A stretch of 64,000 bases of DNA. It comes from Candidatus Poribacteria bacterium. GTDB taxonomy: Bacteria; Poribacteria; WGA-4E; WGA-3G. The stretch spans positions 5,434,346 through 5,498,345 of the forward strand of contig OZ244804.1 of assembly GCA_965220065.1 (NCBI GenBank), given 5' to 3'. The notes beneath the pieces were generated by a model, which was not told the DNA's origin, made no database searches, and saw only the letters and a program-made list of their open reading frames with translations. Made by a program: the position numbers and the translations under genes. Shown in pieces: positions 1-44,687 of this stretch (position 1 is its first letter; the number at the start of each line of letters is the position of its first letter).

Positions 1-1225
1 CATCCCCTCGATTACGGAAAATTTGATCCCGTTGGCGATAGGTCAGGATATCGTGTGTGTCGTCAATATTGTCGATGATATGCCCATTCGCGATAAATAT
101 ATCTCGCCAACCATCGTTATCCGCATCGAGGAAACCTGTCCCGAATCCGACGAACAAGTAACTCTCTTTACCGAGATGTGCTTCATAAATGACATCGGTA
201 AACGTCCCGTCACCGTTGTTCCGGTAAAGCGCATTGGTTTCGTAAGAGAGGTTCGTAACGAAAATATCGAACCATCCGTCGCCGTTGTAATCGTTAGTGG
301 CAACACCCATCCCTGCTTGTGCAACGCCGTTGAAACTGTAAGCACACCCAGCGAGCAACGAAATTTCACTGAACGTTCCATCACCGTTGTTATAAAAAAA
401 ATCGTTTCGGGTATCGTCGTTTGCGACATAAAGGTCTGGAACACCATCGTTGTTGAAATCTGCTGAAACGACCCCTAACCCTTTTCCGTGAAACAAGCCA
501 CTAATACCTCCAACACCAGCTTCCTGACTAACATCCGTAAAAGTGCCGTCGCCGTTATTGCGATAGAGCGTATCGGGCGCGCCTTCAAACAGGGAAGGAT
601 GACAATAAGTTTGAATCCCGTCTTCCCCGCATGGACGGTAGGGAACATCCGTTGAATACACAAGATAGTTAACAACGAATAGGTCGAGGTGTCCGTCCCG
701 GTTATAGTCGAGGAAACACGCGCTGCTGCTCCAACTTGGATCGCCGACACCTGCGTGAGCCGTGACATCCGTAAAAGCACCATCACCGTTGTTCCGGTAG
801 AGAACATTAACTCCGAAATTAGTCACGTAAAGATCTACATCGCCATCGTTGTCGTAATCGGCGCAAGCGGCACCTTGTCCGTAGTTGCCGCGGTTGCTCA
901 CGCCTGCAGTCGTTGTGATGTCAGTAAAGGTGTTATCGCCATTGTTACGGTAGAGCGCGCTGAGTGTTTCGTTCGTTGACGACGAATCCTTCCAATAACC
1001 GCTATTCACAAGGTAGATGTCCAAATCACCATCGTTGTCGGCGTCAAAGAAGGCACCACCGGCACCGAGGGTTTCGGGAAGATGATATGCACCTTCAGCA
1101 CCATTGATGTGCCTAAAGTCGATGCCCGCCTGCTCAGTCACGTCCACGAATTGGATCGCGGCAGATGACGCCGAGAATGGCACACATATAAAGAAAATGA
1201 GGAGGCATATTCTTTTACTCTTCAT
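1..1225 (-). CDS. CRTAC1/ASPIC-UnbV-type FG-GAP (VCBS) repeat secreted protein, 3'-truncated by the window edge
   Basis: Absent from the ORF track because it has no stop in the window. My translation from ATG 1225 gives MKSKRICLLIFFICVPFSASSAAIQFVDVTEQAGIDFRH...FDADNDGDLDIYLVN...LYRNNGDNTFTD...ADYDNDGDVDLYVTN...DYNRDGHLDLFVVN. The same frame holds at DFNNDG (443-460). The ATG overlaps the stop of the upstream gene. Confidence 0.9.
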   Translation of the reverse strand, partial: MKSKRICLLIFFICVPFSASSAAIQFVDVTEQAGIDFRHINGAEGAYHLPETLGAGGAFFDADNDGDLDIYLVNSGYWKDSSSTNETLSALYRNNGDNTFTDITTTAGVSNRGNYGQGAACADYDNDGDVDLYVTNFGVNVLYRNNGDGAFTDVTAHAGVGDPSWSSSACFLDYNRDGHLDLFVVNYLVYSTDVPYRPCGEDGIQTYCHPSLFEGAPDTLYRNNGDGTFTDVSQEAGVGGISGLFHGKGLGVVSADFNNDGVPDLYVANDDTRNDFFYNNGDGTFSEISLLAGCAYSFNGVAQAGMGVATNDYNGDGWFDIFVTNLSYETNALYRNNGDGTFTDVIYEAHLGKESYLFVGFGTGFLDADNDGWRDIFIANGHIIDNIDDTHDILTYRQRDQIFRNRGD

Positions 1226-2126
1226 AATCTTTGGCGAGACGGAATCCGATAAAACTGGTCCCGATCGCTGGATATTGCCCAATTCGTGTGGAGCACCTCG
1301 CTAACTTTTCTTTGTTCAACCACGATCCTCCTCTTACAACGCGACGACTCCCGACCACCGGTCCCTTTGGGTTTCGATCAGGACTCTGGCGATAGTAGGT
1401 TTCGGAATACCAGTCAGCCACCCATTCCCAGACGTTGCCCGCCATGTCGTGTGTCCCGTAAGGACTTGCCCCTGTAGGATAGGAACCAACGGGTTGCGGG
1501 TACGCCCCTGGTTGCCTCCATATATTCGCGTGGACGATTGCTCCCTTGATGCGTTGTGTGAAGGTATTTCCCCAGGGCCATCGCCTCGCGTTTGTTCCGC
1601 GTGCCGCTTTTTCCCACTCCGCTTCGGTAGGTAGCCGCATGCCTCGCCACGTCGCGTAGGCAACAGCAGAATGCCATGATACTCCTATGACAGGATGGTT
1701 CGGTTTCGTTTTTGCGATGCGGGGCCATGTCCCAAATTCACCGTCATAACTGATAGGCGTGTGTTCACTACCGACGCCACCCTTTTCAACCCAAAACCGA
1801 TAATATTCAGCGTTGGTTACCTCCGTCTTACCGATATAATAGGCGTCCAGATAGATTTTGTGTGTGGGTGCTTCATTCGGCAGATCGTCATCGCTGCCCA
1901 TCGTGAAATGCCCCGCGGGGATGAGACACATGTCGGGTCCAGTCCACGCACAGGGTGAAAACGCCAAGAGGGTATAAAGTAAGACGGTTATCAGTCTTCG
2001 GTTATCAGTTTTCGGTAAGAGGTTTTCATGTAATAACAAATCTCTTTTTAACCGATAACTGACAACTGACAGCTGACTACCATTTTCCTGATCGCTATTC
2101 TTTGGTTTTTGACGTGAGACGTTCAT
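1215..2126 (-). CDS. FGE-sulfatase (SUMF1/EgtB/PvdO) fold protein, secreted; true start uncertain (ATG 2126 or TTG ~2038)
   Basis: Motifs IPAGHFTMGS, YYIGKTEVTNAEY, HPVIGVSW, RLPTEAEWEKAARG, DMAGNVWEW, RGGSW, GFRLA. Lacks the catalytic cysteine pair of true FGE after RGGS. Confidence 0.9.
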   Translation of the reverse strand: MNVSRQKPKNSDQENGSQLSVVSYRLKRDLLLHENLLPKTDNRRLITVLLYTLLAFSPCAWTGPDMCLIPAGHFTMGSDDDLPNEAPTHKIYLDAYYIGKTEVTNAEYYRFWVEKGGVGSEHTPISYDGEFGTWPRIAKTKPNHPVIGVSWHSAVAYATWRGMRLPTEAEWEKAARGTNARRWPWGNTFTQRIKGAIVHANIWRQPGAYPQPVGSYPTGASPYGTHDMAGNVWEWVADWYSETYYRQSPDRNPKGPVVGSRRVVRGGSWLNKEKLARCSTRIGQYPAIGTSFIGFRLAKDYEE

Positions 2127-6273: not shown

Positions 6274-6747
6274 ATGAAACAAGCACCCAACCGAGGACAC
6301 CGGCAACTCCGAAAAGGCAGAACCTCAATACCCGGTGCCTACTATTACCTCACACTCGCCACACTTAACAAAAAACCACTGCTCGCAACTCCCAAAATCG
6401 CAGACATTATTTTTCAAGCCTTTGACTGGCTCGAAACGAAAGAACGGCTCAGATGGTTTTGTGGGGTTGTGATGCCAGATCATATCCACGCCGTTATCCA
6501 ACTCGGCAGTCAGCAAACATTTTCCAAGCTTATACAATCCTTCAAAAGCCACACAGCGAAACAGGTTAATGCTTGCTTGGGACGTAGCGGTTCGCTTTGG
6601 CAAGCTGCTTACTATGAACATGGTATTCGGCGGGATGAATCATTAAATACCATTATTCAATATTGCTATCAGAACCCAGTGCGGTCAGGATTGGTAAAGG
6701 CTGCGAGGGATTATCCGTTTTGGTGGTGTAAATTTGAGATGGAATGA
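6274..6747 (+). CDS. rayT: REP-associated tyrosine transposase (RAYT, Y1 HUH family)
   Basis: YYLT..T, HUH motif VVMPDHIHAV, FKSHT, LWQ..YYEH.IR, catalytic Y..QNPV..GLV; flanked by inverted REPs. Confidence 0.9.
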   Translation: MKQAPNRGHRQLRKGRTSIPGAYYYLTLATLNKKPLLATPKIADIIFQAFDWLETKERLRWFCGVVMPDHIHAVIQLGSQQTFSKLIQSFKSHTAKQVNACLGRSGSLWQAAYYEHGIRRDESLNTIIQYCYQNPVRSGLVKAARDYPFWWCKFEME

Positions 6748-37016: not shown

Positions 37017-38855
37017 ATGCGTCATTTGCGATTTGTGTTAATAGCGATTGCTTGTATCGGCATGTCGCGTGGTGTTGTTTTTGCACAGGACGATGCGCTG
37101 GAGGGTGGGACAGTCCGTGGACTGATTACCGACTTAACGCCAGCGCAGAACCCAATTGAGGGCGTTGAGGTCAAGATTGTTGCCCAAGACAGCGGAAAGG
37201 CATGGACAACAAAAACGGATGCTGACGGCGAGTACAAACACGCTGGGCTTCCCCCCGGGCACTACATGATTAGCATATCTAAAGAGGGGTACAATGAGCG
37301 GGTTGGAAAACCTGTTACTGTCGTTGATGGCGGCGACCACTTTATCTCCCTCAAAATGACGGAGAAGGGCGATATCGAACCCCGCAAAAAAAGGCTGGAC
37401 GTTCTTGTCAAACAACGAGCTGGTGTCGTCAAACAACGAATTATGTCTCTGCTCGAACGTGTCGTCGAAAATGTTGGTAAGCGTTACGATTTGGACGAGG
37501 GAGTTGTCAATGCCCTTCATCAGTCAATTCTTAATTCAATTGAGGGTACGTTGGAACAGGGTGGAGATCTGGGGGGCTTCGCAAAGTCGATGGAGGAAGG
37601 AAACGTGCCGTTGCTTGAAACGATATTATCGCATCCCGGCTGTCAAGCAGAGTTCCAGAAACACTTGAGCGAGACGCAGCTTCAGGATTATTTGGAATTT
37701 ACGGCGGCACGACAACAACGAGATCGACAGGCGGTCGTTCATTGGATCACTGTCGCACTCGATAAGGAACTCAGTTTGAGAGCAGATCAACGCGAAAAGG
37801 TTGTGCAGTCGCTACTTGACACAATAGAGAACAAACTCTTTCCGACTTCAATGGGTGCCTTGTGGTTCAGTCCAGAACAGGCGGCGCAGCTGATGCACTA
37901 CAGGTTGAAACTCTCGCTGGATGGCGTTTTGAGTGAGGCACAGTCCAAAGTCTGGCAGGGATTGGTTAACGCGAATACAAACACAGAACAAGTCTTTGTC
38001 GTCGTACCCGAAGCCCACATTAAGGAAGTAATCAAGGTTGAGAAGATAGATGGGGAAGACGTTGCCGCCCTGAACAAGAGGTTTGGGTTTATCCCCAATG
38101 AACCAGACGAGCATCTTGGGATAGAGAAAGAATTTAAAATAGCGATCGATGATATAATGATTGACCAGCCAAGGAAGCAACCTTGGATTGAAATTAACGC
38201 CGATACAGCGGAATCTCCAGAGCAAATGATGGAGATCGCTGAAGCCAAACTTGCGGCGCATACCGAGTTGTTAGGTGCTCTTGATGAACGTGCGACTCGA
38301 CGCTTGGTACTCGTTGCCAAAGGTGTGGTGCAACAGTACTTTGAAGCCCAAGACGAAGCTCGCGAAGCGATATCCCGGGAGGTCGAAGCGGATCTCACGA
38401 AGAAAGTTGAAGATGGCAAAATGACTCGTGAAGAGGCAGCAGCGATGCTCAAATTTACGGTGAGAAATGCGATGGATGAATTATCTAAAGATGGAGGGTC
38501 AAAGGCTGACATTACAGAACATCCGCTGTATCAACAGGCAATTAAGGATGTGCTTTCTGAAGAGGCATTTGCGGCGTATAGTGAACATCAAGCTGAAAGA
38601 GAGGCTTTACGTCAACAGGCATTGCGTGATATAGTGGTGGCGTGTATGGATATGCAACTGCTTTTAGGGAACACACAGCGGAAGCAATTGGAAACGGCAG
38701 CATCGCAGTTGGTTCCCGGTCCGCTTAAGGAAGGAAGTTCTTCTATCTCAATGTTTTTTCAACTTTTTCCACAGACGGTAGATTTTGAAGTCCTGACCCC
38801 ACGGCAGCGGACGGAGTTTGAACGTGTGTTCGGTCCGATTGCGTGGAGGAGGTAA
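37017..38855 (+). CDS. Secreted protein with carboxypeptidase-regulatory-like (transthyretin-fold) domain and duplicated helical region
   Basis: Signal peptide; GTVRGLITD...PIEGVEV...TKTDADGEY...LPPGHY.ISISKEGY; two similar helical segments. Confidence 0.7.
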   Translation: MRHLRFVLIAIACIGMSRGVVFAQDDALEGGTVRGLITDLTPAQNPIEGVEVKIVAQDSGKAWTTKTDADGEYKHAGLPPGHYMISISKEGYNERVGKPVTVVDGGDHFISLKMTEKGDIEPRKKRLDVLVKQRAGVVKQRIMSLLERVVENVGKRYDLDEGVVNALHQSILNSIEGTLEQGGDLGGFAKSMEEGNVPLLETILSHPGCQAEFQKHLSETQLQDYLEFTAARQQRDRQAVVHWITVALDKELSLRADQREKVVQSLLDTIENKLFPTSMGALWFSPEQAAQLMHYRLKLSLDGVLSEAQSKVWQGLVNANTNTEQVFVVVPEAHIKEVIKVEKIDGEDVAALNKRFGFIPNEPDEHLGIEKEFKIAIDDIMIDQPRKQPWIEINADTAESPEQMMEIAEAKLAAHTELLGALDERATRRLVLVAKGVVQQYFEAQDEAREAISREVEADLTKKVEDGKMTREEAAAMLKFTVRNAMDELSKDGGSKADITEHPLYQQAIKDVLSEEAFAAYSEHQAEREALRQQALRDIVVACMDMQLLLGNTQRKQLETAASQLVPGPLKEGSSSISMFFQLFPQTVDFEVLTPRQRTEFERVFGPIAWRR

Positions 38856-38860
38856 TCCTA

Positions 38861-39985
38861 ATGAAGGTTTCAAAGTCTGTGAAGTGTGCTAAAGTCCATA
38901 AGGTTGCCAACAACTTTCGATACACTCGCGAACTTTTTTATTTTATTTTTCTGGTGCTGCTGGTCATATTTTCAACCGGGTCGGCAAATGCACAGAATGT
39001 TGCCCTCCGTTATGGTACAGGTGTACCTGCGGCAGTTCGGATCATCAATGATCGCGGTTTACGCTATCTCGCGAACTCCCAAATGGAGAACGGGGGATGG
39101 TCAGGCGCGGGGAGCGGACCCGGCGTAACAGGGATTTGTGTCATGGCACTGATGGCAAGTGGCGAAGACCCAGATTTCGGTCCTTATGCCACGAACATCC
39201 GTAAAGCCTTGCAGAACATCATCTCCAATCAGGATGCGAGAACGGGATACATCGGCGGAACGTGGAGCGGACACGGATCCATGTACCAGCACGGTTTTGC
39301 CTTGTTGGCACTGTCCGAAGCGTATGGCGCAGTCAACGAGCGACTGCTCTGGGAAGGGAGCGACATTCCGCCTGAACGGCGGCGCACCCTTAGTGAGGCG
39401 TTGGAATTGGCGGTGCGCTCTTCGTTAACTTCACAGCAAAAGAATCCATGGGGTGCTTGGCGTTACTCCCCGGATTCCCAAGATGCCGACACAACTGTGG
39501 CTGGAACCGTGTTGATGGGCATACTCGGTGCTCGAAACGCTGGCATCGAGATCCCCAACGAAGCCGTTGACAAGGCTGTGAGTTTTTTTCAGACGCACAC
39601 AATGCAAAACGGGAGTGTAACATATCAGATGACGAGCAGTCACGGTGGCGGACTCACTCGTTCAGCAATAGGTGTCCTGATTTATGCGATTGCGAAAAGA
39701 AAAGATACCCCTGAATACAAAGCCGCTTCTGAGTTCATCAAGCGTCGAATAGACCATCGTGGCAGTGGGCATCTGTTCTATAATCTCTACTATATGGCGC
39801 AAGCACTGTTTCAAAGTGACTTTGAGGCGTGGAAGGCTTGGAATCAGAGAACCATCGAGTGGCTCCAAGAAACGCAGGCAGAAGATGGCAGTTTCTCGAG
39901 TTCCCATGGCAGAGCCTACGGCACGGGTATGGCTATCCTTGCTTTGGCATTGAACTATCGCCTCTTACCCATTTATGAAAGGTGA
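38861..39985 (+). CDS. Prenyltransferase/squalene oxidase repeat (alpha/alpha-barrel) protein
   Basis: GL.YLA.SQ..NGGW, MY.HGFALLAL.E, GAWRYSP...DADTT, AQALFQ, Q.EDGSF; GGAGG RBS before ATG 38861. Confidence 0.85.
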   Translation: MKVSKSVKCAKVHKVANNFRYTRELFYFIFLVLLVIFSTGSANAQNVALRYGTGVPAAVRIINDRGLRYLANSQMENGGWSGAGSGPGVTGICVMALMASGEDPDFGPYATNIRKALQNIISNQDARTGYIGGTWSGHGSMYQHGFALLALSEAYGAVNERLLWEGSDIPPERRRTLSEALELAVRSSLTSQQKNPWGAWRYSPDSQDADTTVAGTVLMGILGARNAGIEIPNEAVDKAVSFFQTHTMQNGSVTYQMTSSHGGGLTRSAIGVLIYAIAKRKDTPEYKAASEFIKRRIDHRGSGHLFYNLYYMAQALFQSDFEAWKAWNQRTIEWLQETQAEDGSFSSSHGRAYGTGMAILALALNYRLLPIYER

Positions 39986-39988
39986 ATA

Positions 39989-40130
39989 GTCGTCAGTACA
40001 GTTTTTCTAAGAAAAACCTTTCAGTTCTCAGTTAAGATTTTCTGGCGGTAACGATACATGGAACTGCCACAAGCCTCTCTTTAACTGAAAACTGTTAACT
40101 GAAAGCCTGCGCAGCAGGCGTACTGACAAC
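39989..40130. repeat. Heptamer-armed palindrome plus hairpin, fused to the downstream RBS
   Basis: TCAGTTCTCAGTTAAGA...CTCTTTAACTGAAAACTGTTAACTGAAAGCCTGCGCAGCAGGCGTACTGACAAC-TAAAAAAGGAG-ATG 40146. Confidence 0.7.
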
Positions 40131-40145
40131 TAAAAAAGGAGAGAT

Positions 40146-42659
40146 ATGATGCAATGGAATCTAAAAAGCCTGCTTGTTGTGGTTACCGCGGCGTTGGTGG
40201 TATCATGGACTCCAATAATACAAGCTCAGCAAATCGAAATCTGGCAATCCGATATGCAAACATTGCGTTGGAAAAATGGCGATGTCCTTCCCGGTAAGTT
40301 GTTGGAAAGTGCTTCTGGCGTGATCCACTGGTCATCACCGTACTTTTCGGATGATCTGGTTGTTGATATTGGTGTATTGGATTCGGTTGTTTTCCCAAAG
40401 CAGTCCGCACCAGCAATGGAGGCTTTTCGCGTCGGCACCGTATCCGGGGATATCTGGATCGCTGACATAGATGATTCGGATGAGGAGACCTTTCTCTTCT
40501 CCAGTGAGCGACACGGTCGGTTTCGAGTGAACCGTGAAGCGATCTATACTCTTGAACGTCGGGTGCACCCGAATCTTATTTTCGACGGTTCCCAACTGAC
40601 GAATTGGGAATTACCCAAACAGGATGCGAACCAGCCCATATTGCTGTTTGGTGGGAATGCGTTACCGGATTGGTATGCGGATCGTGGTGGGCATCCACGG
40701 ACAGATAAAGTCAAGGCGAAAATTTTTCACGCCCTTGACTGGCCCCAACGTTTTGAGATTGACTTGGAGTTAGCATCTGCGACGCGTCCGCCGGGCTTTG
40801 TTTTCGCACTTGGCAAAAATTTATATGAGGCATTGCGGCTGGAAACTTGGGTTAACGAACTCGTCGTCGTTCAAGGCACACTGTTCGAACCAGTATTGAC
40901 AATCCAGCCGGATCGGCGAAACTTCCGCTTACGTCTTGCTTATGATGGGGACACCGGTGTACTGGAGGTGTTTGATTTTGCGGGCAACTTACTGCTGAAA
41001 TTGGACGAGGTCGGGCAGACAGTTAAGGAATCCGGTCCCTATGTCTACAATCGAGGCCAAAATTTGACGGTGCGGCGGTTAAGGGTTTATCGGCAGCCTA
41101 TTGGTTCCACAAAGCAACAAATGGATCCTTCCAAGCCGCGAGTTCACATGATGAATGGGCAAGTCGTTTATGGGAAGTTGTTTGTCGAGAAAGAAAGTAC
41201 TTATGTCCTTGATGAAGATGGGAATCGGTATGACATCGACATCCAACAAATTGACCGTGTTGTTCAGCCTGGTGCGGCATTCGTCGAAATGGAACAACCC
41301 GTTGCCTTGACCTATCCCGACGGTGCGGTCTTGCGGGGCAAGATTGCACAGGTGAACCCAGGAAGTGTATTGTTACAGACTGCGTTCTCAAATGAACCGA
41401 TAGAATGTGTGTTTGCAGGTGCCTCACTGCTTCGTGTGGAATTAAGTGGTCCCAAGAATCACGGACAGATTGAAGACGAGGATAGATTATTTCACCCGTC
41501 GGGGAATCTCCGTGGCCGCGTTCACTTTGACGTGAAGGACGGATCGTTCATTCGTTGGAAACCTGTCGGTGCGTCGGAAGCTGTGCGACTGGCAAATATC
41601 CGGAGAGCCCACATAGAACGCAACAACAGACGCGCATCGAAGATGTATCCCTTTGACACGTCGCGGTTCCGTCATATATTGCATCTGAAGAGCGGAGAGA
41701 TCATTCCATGTCAAATTTCATCATACGATGAAAAGACCGTCGGTTTCCAGTCACCTTTTATCAGCGCGCACCTTATGGATTCGACATACGTGAAAGCACT
41801 GGAGTTCTCTGGTAGAACACATGCGAACTATATTGATACGGTGCATTCGACCAACAGCAAACGTTCCTATATCAATCTTGGAGAAGGAAATCGAAACCAT
41901 AGGATCGTAATCCGCAATGTAGAATGGGAAGGACAGGAGAAACTCGAGGGATTTTTTGGAGAGGGTGGCGAGATAGATGTGAGAGAAGGCGAGATCAGAT
42001 TAATGATAGATGGCAAGGAAATCAAGGTACATCCTGACCAGAATTTAGACGAAGTTATCTTCGATGTATTTCATGATGGCGCACCTAAAAACCGCAAGTT
42101 AGATGTAAAATTGGAGCATGCGTTAACCGTCCCGCGTTTCAATCGGGACACCCCACCGAGCCATATTCTCGTAGCAGAGAACGGGGATATGAAACGAGGC
42201 AAGCTACTGGGCTTCAATGGAGAAACGATCCAGTTTGATTCTAAACTACGCCAGTTTTCTGTTCCTATAGACCGTGTGGCACGGGTGGTCGATGTGAGCA
42301 AAGAAGTCGTCAGCGATCAGCAAAGAAGTCGTCAGTTAACAGTTAACAGTCGTCAGTTAAAAGATAGAGTTGTTAAACCAGAGCCCTCTTTCTCTTTAAC
42401 TGATAATCGACGACTGACAACTGACAACCACTCTGAGGTCTGTGTCAGATTAACGGATAGTTCTATTCTGATTTTTGAACCGCTTGAGATCAAAGATGAT
42501 GCGTTATTGGGACGTTCGCCGATCTACGGAGAAATAACGGTTCCGATCGCAAGTATCCAGCATCTCTATCTCGGAGACACGACAGCGTCGTTTGCACCTG
42601 CCTTTGAAGCATGGGTGATCCGACCGGCGAAAGAGCCGGTGTTCAGCAACGAGCCGTAA
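40146..42659 (+). CDS. Secreted hypothetical protein with about six beta-rich L-x-x-x-NG-D-x-x-x-G-x-L modules
   Basis: Signal peptide; LRWKNGDVLPGKLL, VHMMNGQVVYGKLF, LTYPDGAVLRGKIA, LHLKSGEIIPCQIS, LVAENGDMKRGKLL, VRLTDSSILIFEPL. Confidence 0.75.
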   Translation: MMQWNLKSLLVVVTAALVVSWTPIIQAQQIEIWQSDMQTLRWKNGDVLPGKLLESASGVIHWSSPYFSDDLVVDIGVLDSVVFPKQSAPAMEAFRVGTVSGDIWIADIDDSDEETFLFSSERHGRFRVNREAIYTLERRVHPNLIFDGSQLTNWELPKQDANQPILLFGGNALPDWYADRGGHPRTDKVKAKIFHALDWPQRFEIDLELASATRPPGFVFALGKNLYEALRLETWVNELVVVQGTLFEPVLTIQPDRRNFRLRLAYDGDTGVLEVFDFAGNLLLKLDEVGQTVKESGPYVYNRGQNLTVRRLRVYRQPIGSTKQQMDPSKPRVHMMNGQVVYGKLFVEKESTYVLDEDGNRYDIDIQQIDRVVQPGAAFVEMEQPVALTYPDGAVLRGKIAQVNPGSVLLQTAFSNEPIECVFAGASLLRVELSGPKNHGQIEDEDRLFHPSGNLRGRVHFDVKDGSFIRWKPVGASEAVRLANIRRAHIERNNRRASKMYPFDTSRFRHILHLKSGEIIPCQISSYDEKTVGFQSPFISAHLMDSTYVKALEFSGRTHANYIDTVHSTNSKRSYINLGEGNRNHRIVIRNVEWEGQEKLEGFFGEGGEIDVREGEIRLMIDGKEIKVHPDQNLDEVIFDVFHDGAPKNRKLDVKLEHALTVPRFNRDTPPSHILVAENGDMKRGKLLGFNGETIQFDSKLRQFSVPIDRVARVVDVSKEVVSDQQRSRQLTVNSRQLKDRVVKPEPSFSLTDNRRLTTDNHSEVCVRLTDSSILIFEPLEIKDDALLGRSPIYGEITVPIASIQHLYLGDTTASFAPAFEAWVIRPAKEPVFSNEP

Positions 42660-42773
42660 TCCATTACGAGAATGCCAAAAAACATAGCCTGCGACACCGG
42701 CGCAGGCGGATCTACGTAAAGGCACTTTAAAACCTCAATTTCACCTGACCAAACCGCAAGGAATAATTAAAAA

Positions 42774-44687
42774 ATGAGCGTGAGAGCGATTCTGATCGGT
42801 TTGGCACTCGTCATTATCCAGACAGCAATTACCCCCTATAACGACTACTATCTCCAAGGAACAGATATCGCCGGAAATCATTTTCCTTTGGGGACAGTGT
42901 TCACACTGATTTTTCTCACCCTGGTCGTCAATCCCATTCTGAAGAAAGTATTTCCCCGAGCGGTGCTAAATCCAGGGGAATTGATGATAGTCTGGGTTAT
43001 GATGGTCATCAGTTCAGCGATCCCATCGAAGGGAATGGTCGGGTATTTACTTCCTTATCTGGCGGCACCCGTCTATTTCGCTACACCTGAGAATGAGTGG
43101 GCAGAAACGCTTCATCCGCACTTCCCTGAATGGTTAATTGTGTGGGATGAGCATGCCGTCACCGATTTCTATGAAGGAGAATCAATTGTCCCTTGGGGAC
43201 TCTGGGCAAAGCCGCTCGTTGTTTGGACAGTTTTTATCTTATTGTTCTATGCGCTGACGATCTGTGTATCGATTGTGTTAAGGAAACAGTGGGTTGAGCG
43301 CGAAAGGTTCATCTTCCCGCTGGTTACTGTGCCTGTGGAGATGGTTCAGCAAACCTCAATGCACGCGGGTCTGAACAGTTTGTTCAGGAATCGGCTCGTG
43401 TGGGTCGGTTTTGGAATCGCTGCCTTTTTTCATCTACTCAACGGACTGCACGAGTATTTCCCTGCCCTTCCGCGCATTCCGAATCGGTATGATTTGTACA
43501 CCCCATTCACGGAGCGTCCATGGATTGTGATGGGCTGGTGGCCCCAATTTCGGTTCTTTCTTTATTTTTCGGTTATCGGTATAACCTACTTTCTCGCCAT
43601 GGAGGTGTCTTTCAGTTGCTGGTTTTTCTTCCTATTCTTCAAGTTACAGTACATCATCATCAACGCCTTCGCGATCCCTATCAGCCCATGGATCTCTGCC
43701 AGAGGACAGACAATGGCGGCATACGTGGTTATGGTGCTTGCCTTTCTACTTAACAGTCGAACCCATATCACAGATCTCCTGAAACGAACGTTTCTGGAGT
43801 CTTCTGCTTCCACAACGATCGACGATTCTGATGAAGTATTGCCGTATAGATGGGCAGTTCTGGGAACAGTGTTTAGTTTTCTGTTGCTTGCGGGTCTCTG
43901 CGTCTACGCGGGGATGTCGCTTTGGGTTGCTTGTAGCATTCTTGTGCTGTTCCTGATTGCTTCTACGGCATTATCGTGGATGGTTGTCAACGGAGGAATG
44001 CTACTGATCCAAGCACCGATGTATCCCGTAGAATACTTTGAAATTATTGCGGGTTCGAGAATCATTAACGCAAACAGTTTGGCACTCTTAGGGTTCCAGC
44101 GGGTAATGATGCGCGACTGGGGCGGCATTTTGATGCCGAGCGTTCTGCACGGATTTAAAGCGGCGGATCCGGTCGGACTAAATCGAAGAAGCGTCCTCGG
44201 CGCAATGGTGCTGGCTATTGTTGTTGCTATCGGTGTTTCCTATGCGGCATCGTTGCCTTTGATTTATGAAAAAGGTGGCTTAAATCTGCAGAGGGGTCCC
44301 TTCGTCGGATCACCGAGATATTTTAATCATATGGTTTCACTGATTCAGTATCCGAAAGACCCGAAATTAGGAGAGGCGTACAGTATGCTTTTGGGAGCTG
44401 GAATCACTGGCTTTCTACTGATTATGCAGCGTCAATTTATGTGGTGGCAACTTCACCCGATTGGATATGTGATGGGTGCGGTTTATTCCTCCTATTTCCT
44501 CTGGTCTTGTATATGTATTGGCTGGTTTTTGAAGTATCTGGCACTGAAATCAGGTGGGATTGGATCCTATCGAAGACTTCGACCATTGTTTATGGGGTTG
44601 GTTATCGGTGAGTTTGGTATTGTGGGGTTTTGGATGATCATCGGGATGGTTACAGGCGTGAATTACCAAGGTGCCTTACCCGGATAA
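42774..44687 (+). CDS. DUF6785/DUF6784-type polytopic membrane protein
   Basis: [43 protein letters not shown]...YR..RP.F.GLV.GE; clear paralogue of 61100-63031. Confidence 0.75.

Follow-up and report, generated by a model that had tools for sequence, protein, structure and literature searches.

An in-frame copy of a heptamer-armed palindrome family as a probable disordered linker in a secreted beta protein of Candidatus Poribacteria

We analyzed a stretch of 64,000 nucleotides (the window) from a Candidatus Poribacteria bacterium, whose genome is a single contig of 5.54 Mb. A gene of the window (40146–42659, + strand) encodes a secreted multi-module beta protein of 837 residues, which has a central ConA/lectin-like beta-sandwich and is conserved across Poribacteria. 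This host gene contains a complete heptamer-armed palindrome (42300–42431, + strand), which is in frame and corresponds to residues ~719–762, KEVVSDQQRSRQLTVNSRQLKDRVVKPEPSFSLTDNRRLTTDNH. The segment is very probably a copy of a lineage-specific palindrome family that is lodged in frame in the gene and translated as a disordered linker, and that entered or partly replaced a linker already existing at the site. On the most economical view, the element was acquired by that linker at an early stage of the genus, and its length has been changing since then.

The element has the order (TCRGnnn) units, AAGAG, loop, CTCTT and (nnnCYGA) units. In the frame of the host open reading frame (ORF), positions 42306–42431 read VSDQQRSRQLTVNSRQLKDRVVKPEPSFSLTDNRRLTTDNH with no stop codon, and translation agrees with the initial annotation, which had quoted this stretch as stop-free in the ORF. 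A repeat finder detected direct repeats of 21–22 nt on the left side (42297–42366, + strand), two of AGCAAAGAAGTCGTCAG.. and three of AGTCGTCAGTTAA.., and Tandem Repeats Finder (TRF) assigned a period of 7 with the unit CAGTTAA to the same side. The outer left units, TCAGCGA and TCAGCAA (42310–42323), are followed by the inner left arm, TCAGTTA, ACAGTTA, ACAGTCG and TCAGTTA (42332–42359). The 5′ half of the inner stem, AAAAGATAGAG (42359–42369), the 15-nt loop, TTGTTAAACCAGAGC (42370–42384), and the 3′ half of the stem, CCTCTTTCTCTTTAA (42385–42399), lead to the right arm, CTGATAA, TCGACGA, CTGACAA and CTGACAA (42400–42427); all of these parts are given for the + strand. The core heptamer is present in both orientations, as TCAGTTA units and as TAACTGA in the right arm. 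The two stem halves and the loop (42359–42399) encode KDRVVKPEPSFSL, and the right arm together with the terminal CCAC (42400–42431) translates to TDNRRLTTDNH. VVKPEPSFSLTDNR would be an example of a tryptic peptide crossing the element.

The palindromic character of the element is evident at two scales, since the repeat finder gave 35-nt arms that are 71% complementary and 20-nt arms that are 85% complementary. The RNA fold of the element has an energy of −38 kcal/mol (z = −2.6), which was equalled by 2 of 200 shuffles. Two codons are placed where the repeat would otherwise interrupt the gene. Codon CGT (42351–42353) replaces the in-frame TAA expected from a third ACAGTTA unit, and codon CGA (42408–42410, in the unit TCGA) replaces the in-frame TGA expected from a canonical CTGA unit. 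The closest genomic matches of the element have AACCGAC or AACTGAT at this CGA-bearing unit of the right arm.

The family was defined by a core rule, in which at least three TCRG at period 7 are followed by at least three CYGA at period 7, no more than 200 nt apart. This TCRG/CYGA rule replaced a strict regular expression (CRGTT..CRGTT), which had missed the target because one unit of its right arm is GACTG. Genome-wide, arm pairs in the left-then-right order number 213 versus 10 in the reversed-order control, and merging leaves ~160 two-armed elements of 65–185 nt with a median of 95 nt. The period is sharply defined; three successive TCAG at period 7 occur 110 times in the genome versus 0–2 times at period 6 or 8, CTGA behaves likewise, and the top period-7 words are AACT, ACTG, CTGA and TAAC. 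The inner AAGAG...CTCTT stem, a variable loop and the terminal motif AAT[AG]G[CT] (320 termini) are common to the family.

The target was recovered by the family rule at genome positions 5476655–5476769, which are window positions 42310–42424. It carries the inner-stem sequences AAAAGATAGAG and CCTCTTTCTCTT, and its ends agree with the terminal consensus in part, with a 5′ end of AGAAGT (4/6) and a 3′ end whose reverse complement is AGTGGT (5/6). In blastn-short searches, 59 nt of the target including the loop aligned to an intergenic copy at genome 497865–497923 (83% identity, E = 0.002), and the loop word TTGTTAAACCAGAnCCCTCTTT was found again at genome 2381691–2381712 (95% over 22 nt). The family rule, the order of the arms and the loop alignments together bear out the earlier assignment of the segment to the two-armed intergenic family. 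Ungapped 40-nt arm-junction profiles made from intergenic copies gave two weak nhmmer hits on the window, with the target not among them; given the shortness of the profiles and the variation in junction length, this membership test lacked power and was dropped. An Rfam scan of 39900–42700 with E up to 1 returned zero families, and blastn against a plasmid collection returned zero matches.

The host protein has more than 500 homologues, including 120 full-length ones at 70–100% identity, and 1016 representatives in a 50%-identity library, while a Pfam scan of it returned zero families. An AlphaFold2 model based on an alignment of 39 sequences has a mean predicted local distance difference test (pLDDT) score of 71.6. 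Residues 720–761 have pLDDT values below 50 (block means of 24–30) and are situated between the beta modules 673–716 and 765–809. The element segment is therefore predicted to be disordered and to separate the last two beta modules, and the initial annotation had likewise placed it between two such modules. Foldseek searches with the model gave generic lectin-like/jelly-roll beta-sandwich matches, with template modeling (TM) scores of 0.13–0.17 over the whole query, and these matches are uninformative on function beyond the ConA-like domain.

The 62 codons on the 3′ side of the element have nonsynonymous to synonymous rate ratios (dN/dS) of 0.11–0.27 against 11 orthologues. The reading frame that crosses the element is therefore the frame under selection. 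The segment has no stop codon in the frame of the gene; it would therefore pass through transcription and translation along with the gene and form a disordered spacer of ~44 residues. A pseudogene, which the initial annotation had named as a reading that would count against it, was rejected because the ORF is unbroken in more than 100 orthologues and because of the same downstream dN/dS values. Contigs from two sponge metatranscriptome runs match 41823–42285 with two mismatches or fewer, and DNA contigs of other runs cross the element with 0–1 differences.

The linker at the element site is far more variable than the remainder of the protein. Among 118 orthologues, its length ranges from 14 to 61 residues (median 33), and its pairwise identity is 26% versus 78% for the rest of the protein. 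Orthologue P0003, which is 98% identical, lacks exactly SRQLTVN, that is, 21 nt or three units. The 21-nt unit encoding this heptapeptide has a scattered distribution; it is missing in P0003 and P0006–17 and present in P0004, P0005 and P0018. Such a distribution is in keeping with recurrent slippage in steps that preserve the frame. Variable, heptamer-like DNA is found at the site in every orthologue within the genus and also in a paralogue lineage of 55–60% identity. Some orthologues retain hairpin potential at the site, whereas others have lost it.

The distribution of the family follows the genus. Four successive TCAG at period 7 gave 10–174 hits per genome in 25 of 25 genomes of the genus, and zero hits in 15 of the 16 genomes from the order's other genera. 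Within the sample of poribacterial genomes, the family is confined to this genus. The initial annotation had reasoned that an equivalent linker in orthologues without the family would speak against an insertion. Such a linker does exist in the homologues from the outgroup genera; however, it is shorter (18–26 versus ~44–48 residues), unrelated in sequence, and free of period-7 units. The element thus occupies or extends a pre-existing linker and did not create one, because the outgroups have a shorter linker at the same place.

Copies inside genes are not peculiar to this locus. When an in-ORF copy is defined as one well inside an open frame of at least 200 codons, 22 of the ~160 elements (~14%) qualify, that is, 21 besides the target, and 16 of the 17 host ORFs scanned have Pfam domains. 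The enzyme and housekeeping hosts comprise LpxK, a TlyA-like FtsJ/S4 protein, Ldh_2, CarA, a ROK protein, PdxA, RecD2, a class A penicillin-binding protein (PBP1), SLT and a WbaP-like transferase. The ORF of the class A penicillin-binding protein contains a second copy in addition. The envelope and secreted hosts comprise a T2SS-K-like protein, two Omp85/POTRA proteins, a BatA/VWA protein (two copies) and a C25 peptidase. The behavior that the initial annotation had likened to that of Rickettsia palindromic elements (RPEs) therefore holds for the present gene and also generalizes to others.

In three of the enzymes, the site could be compared with homologues of known structure or from other lineages. 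In PdxA, the element is an insertion of 36–38 residues between residues 171 and 174 of PDB 4jqp_A. PdxA proteins of other genera have no element and are colinear with the query after the element is removed, and versions or remnants of the element are present in all orthologues within the genus. CarA has 37 residues at the site versus 15 in E. coli CarA, and RecD2 has 50–65 residues in the genus versus 8–14 in the outgroups. On these alignments, the PdxA and RecD2 copies represent clean insertions when set against the outgroups, in agreement with the earlier expectation that such segments would be gaps in orthologues.

These comparisons bear on the explanation that survives best besides the insertion of a copy, namely that a native low-complexity linker rich in Q, S, T, D and N evolved in place, that its likeness to the intergenic repeats arose by coincidence or local slippage, and that no pre-formed element was ever inserted. 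We consider this unlikely. A linker is indeed present at the site in the homologues from the outgroups, as this explanation supposes, and slippage alone can lengthen heptamer arrays. However, slippage or coincidence would also have to supply the full two-armed architecture in the correct order, with the AAGAG/CTCTT stem and a loop that is 83–95% alignable to intergenic copies. The same architecture would have to arise in 21 unrelated ORFs, including enzyme folds in which the outgroups have only 2–14 residues. Moreover, the genera whose linkers are without the element are also without the family.

Some observations nevertheless weigh against the insertion and translation of a family copy at this site. 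There is no empty site among the orthologues within the genus or in the 55–60%-identical paralogue lineage, which is also what a native linker would give; insertion is therefore inferred from the comparison with the outgroups only. Gradual growth of the linker in place by heptamer slippage retains a residual probability for this reason. The metatranscriptome contigs stop at the repeat, and none of them crosses the element. No heptamer arms are found within 300 nt of any of the three PF01797 (Y1-transposase) loci of the genome, which leaves no transposase tied to the family. Finally, the persistence of the segment throughout the genus, at dS values of up to ~1.5, could mean that it has gained a function. 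In our view, the element is a tolerated passenger rather than an adaptive module.

The heptamer units impose simple coding rules on any copy that is read through. Across 21 nt, (TCAGCnn)3 is read as the codons TCA, GCn, nTC, AGC, nnT, CAG and Cnn, none of which can be a stop codon, so that an arm of this kind is stop-free in each of the three forward frames. In a right arm of (nnnCTGA)3, TGA falls in frame at every third unit. In gene orientation, TCAG makes up 94% of left-arm units in the in-ORF copies versus 64% in the intergenic ones, and CCGA makes up 68% versus 35% of the right-arm units. Stop avoidance explains the change from CTGA to CCGA in the right arm. Stops do not account for the excess of TCAG in the left arm, for which selection against hairpins in the mRNA or a preference for certain amino acids or codons may be responsible. 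As a result of the TCAG/CCGA composition, folding is weaker on the sense than on the antisense strand in all 22 in-ORF copies (means of −26.5 versus −38.2 kcal/mol, Wilcoxon p = 5e-7). Among the intergenic copies, no net strand bias in folding was observed.

The folding energies raise the question of whether the element acts at the level of nucleic acid, with the peptide as a by-product. It might be a site for a post-transcriptional regulator that recognizes TAACTGA, of the kind proposed for Beggiatoaceae (MacGregor 2015, PMC4679880), a hairpin in the mRNA for pausing or processing, or a template-strand signal. Persistence at the same site throughout the genus would be consistent with such a role. 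The sense strand of the target has retained a strong fold (−35 to −39 kcal/mol), and the antisense hairpin is strong in all of the 22 in-ORF copies (mean of −38 kcal/mol). In addition, a second copy of the family ends ~16 nt on the 5′ side of the host start codon, a position typical of the repeats in MacGregor 2015. However, hairpin potential is gone on both strands in several orthologues (z near 0 for L006–L011), the identity of the segment is only 26%, and the host genes have unrelated functions. Avoidance of stop codons (CTGA to CCGA) alone, moreover, would largely produce the asymmetry between the strands. A role of this kind thus appears quite improbable.

A contingency locus, in which the gain or loss of a 7-nt unit would shift the frame and phase-vary the last beta module, with compensating arm changes re-coding the loop, might be suspected from a unit length not divisible by 3, tandem arms, a 21-nt length polymorphism between 97–98%-identical strains and a secreted, probably surface-exposed host, but is highly improbable, because every orthologue examined is in frame through the element, the (R/K)PK(A/P)S core is translated in the same frame in distant orthologues, the runs covering the region contain no indel variants (in contigs, which would hide rare variants), and switching would be harmful in the many hosts that are housekeeping enzymes.

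The insertion of a family copy into a linker can be pictured as follows. In the ancestor of the genus, the element would have inserted into an existing linker or replaced part of it, and it would have survived there because a flexible linker tolerates extra residues. The substitutions at the would-be TAA and TGA positions may have been selected after the insertion, or they may have been a precondition for the insertion to survive. The arms would then have varied in length via slipped-strand mispairing. Within an ORF, the frame would be preserved only by length changes in multiples of 21 nt (three units), and the outcome would be a linker that is hypervariable among orthologues.

Further copies of the family were observed near gene starts, including window 40022–40130. 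One copy occupies the entire spacer on the 5′ side of the host gene (window ~39985–40135). Its AATAG terminus adjoins the TGA stop codon of ORF 38843–39985, and its right arm ends ~16 nt on the 5′ side of the ATG at 40146, directly before a GGAG ribosome-binding site. A complete two-armed copy (window 1991–2076) is located at the 5′ edge of ORF 1215–2126 (minus strand), which encodes an FGE/sulfatase-modifying-like protein, and it reads ..KTDNRRLITVLLYTLLAFSPCAW if the start codon is the ATG at 2126. TDNRRL is present in this ORF, as the initial annotation had pointed out for a position near ~2000. For 13 of 15 further copies genome-wide, a long open frame has its upstream end within 1–49 codons; therefore, they are probably situated directly upstream of the true starts.

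The genome also contains other repeats and transposase genes. The commonest 14–16-mers genome-wide belong to other repeat families, with, for example, 169 copies of ACCGAACCGCAAGG, 128 of CTGCGCCGTTGTTGCA and 138 of GTAGGTTGGGTTGA; therefore, several high-copy families of small repeats exist in this genome besides the heptamer family. A weak match to the Y1 transposase (PF01797, 41 bits) is found in the window at 6337–6666 (genome 5440682–5441011), and heptamer arms are absent from its flanks. A stronger Y1 locus at genome 5226007–5226351 is flanked by a different hairpin family (CCGCTCCAGCGGAGCGG). As for the surroundings of the host gene, the gene downstream of it (window 42774–44687) encodes a protein with DUF6785 and DUF6784 (E = 4e-152). 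A MoxR/BatA/vWA-type cluster ends with the host gene, and the host protein may therefore belong to that system.

The two-armed architecture extends beyond Poribacteria. One genome per species was scanned for exact matches to four TCRG units plus the AAGAG junction, for which ~1 chance hit is expected. At least 119 stretches were found, most of them from Poribacteria. Among the 80 matches listed, 31 are from other phyla, and 11 of these 31 have an inverted arm within 200 nt downstream, which indicates that the TCAG-heptamer hairpin is a broader architecture. The hits outside Poribacteria come from Acidobacteriota, Desulfobacterota/Deltaproteobacteria, Omnitrophota, Gemmatimonas (Gemmatimonadota), Dehalococcoidia and cyanobacteria metagenome-assembled genomes (MAGs). 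Examples of hairpins in MAGs of other phyla are found among loci L112–L186, for example, at L131:3867-3990 and in L114, L120, L186 and L130.

A wider proposal can be formulated from these data, although we think it rather unlikely in this full form. TCAG-core heptamer palindromes would constitute a cross-phylum class, propagated by themselves or by an enzyme, that is intrinsically translatable because (TCAGCnn)n is stop-free and that generates disordered linkers and loops of rapidly varying length. The template-strand hairpins with G-T wobbles in 22 of the 22 in-ORF copies, as opposed to an unfolded mRNA strand, would then point to a strand-specific mechanism or function that is still active at the level of single-stranded DNA.

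In-frame 'selfish' palindromes are documented mainly in Rickettsia and a few proteobacteria, and the present family adds an uncultured phylum of sponge symbionts and a structurally different repeat. The heptamer design leads to rules that can be checked, namely stop-free units, length changes in genes by multiples of 21 nt only, and loss of the hairpin on the coding strand. The family can also be considered a natural experiment on how proteins such as PdxA, CarA, RecD2, LpxK and PBP1 tolerate and retain inserted peptides over the lifetime of a genus. On the practical side, the repeat segments break metagenome and metatranscriptome assemblies and inflate the apparent divergence in alignments of poribacterial proteins.

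The closest analogy in behavior is with the RPEs (Ogata et al. 2000). According to the summaries in PMC10969869 and PMC3733652, RPEs measure ~100–150 bp, are conserved in sequence and bear a CGTC tag at one end; they are found both in intergenic regions and in frame in many unrelated genes, including metabolic and housekeeping genes, whose host proteins are conserved. The present elements are likewise lineage-specific palindromes that occur in intergenic regions and in frame in unrelated conserved genes, at sites that tolerate them. In contrast to RPEs, their arms consist of tandem 7-nt units (TCRGnnn), the loop is variable, the length is 65–185 nt, and the hosts belong to the phylum Poribacteria. 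The copies are also ancient, orthologous across the genus and hypervariable in length. A CGTC tag of the RPE type is near only 25 of the 320 termini of the family, whose consensus is AAT[AG]G[CT]. Homology to the RPE-1 to RPE-10 consensus sequences is unlikely in view of the differing unit structure and phylum.

The core heptamer itself has been described. The initial annotation knew of no report of the heptamer family; the TAACTGA/TCAGTTA direct repeats are in fact published from Beggiatoaceae, cyanobacteria and Bacteroidetes, with a patchy distribution across phyla (MacGregor 2015, PMC4679880), whereas our literature search found no report of the two-armed form, of the family in Poribacteria or of conserved enzymes with in-frame copies of it. 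The published repeats are mostly intergenic and often end directly upstream of a start codon. They form direct arrays of 2–6 exact units, and one inverted case is described among 170 sets; their forward reading is LITDN-stop, and the reverse reading is open and of the SVISYQL/LSVISYQ type. The few intragenic copies are found at the ends of proteins, and Poribacteria are unmentioned (PMC4679880). The core heptamer is the same in our family, and LTDNRRLTTDN in the target is the forward reading with Arg in place of the stop. However, the arrays here are inverted pairs (213 versus 10) of degenerate units around an AAGAG/CTCTT stem-loop, and copies are found in the middle of conserved enzymes.

REP/REPIN elements are abundant short palindromes that have a conserved unpaired end motif and are often paired into larger hairpins (Di Nocera et al. 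2013, PMC3733652; Bertels and Rainey 2011, PMC3116915). They are mobilized by RAYT transposases, have stems of 8–15 bp of unique sequence and occur occasionally in frame in known genes (PMC3733652, PMC3116915). The heptamer elements are also short palindromes with an end motif, and this genome contains other REP families as well as Y1 transposases. Unlike the REP/REPIN hairpins of 20–40 bp of unique sequence with a GTAG/CGTC tag, they are built of tandem heptamers with a median length of 95 nt. Their tag is mostly ATAG or ATGG and in a minority GTAG.

Bacterial miniature transposable elements with inverted repeats (MITEs), such as ERIC, BOX, Nezha and others, also make in-frame fusions (reviewed in PMC10969869). 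The present elements resemble them as small non-coding repeats that are readable through when inside genes, but they have no long terminal inverted repeats of the insertion sequence type, and no parent insertion sequence was identified in a search that covered Y1 transposases only. The STRR sequences of cyanobacteria are reportedly tandem arrays of heptamers, and the heptamer structure of our arms would be similar to theirs, with different unit sequences. To our knowledge, STRR arrays are not organized as two-armed palindromes.

By the defining features compared here, the element is neither an RPE nor a REP, because the CGTC tag, stems of unique sequence and a flanking RAYT are all absent, yet its behavior is that of an RPE. 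The heptamer itself is already published, and its two-armed form in this poribacterial genus is a new repeat family with a known kind of behavior.

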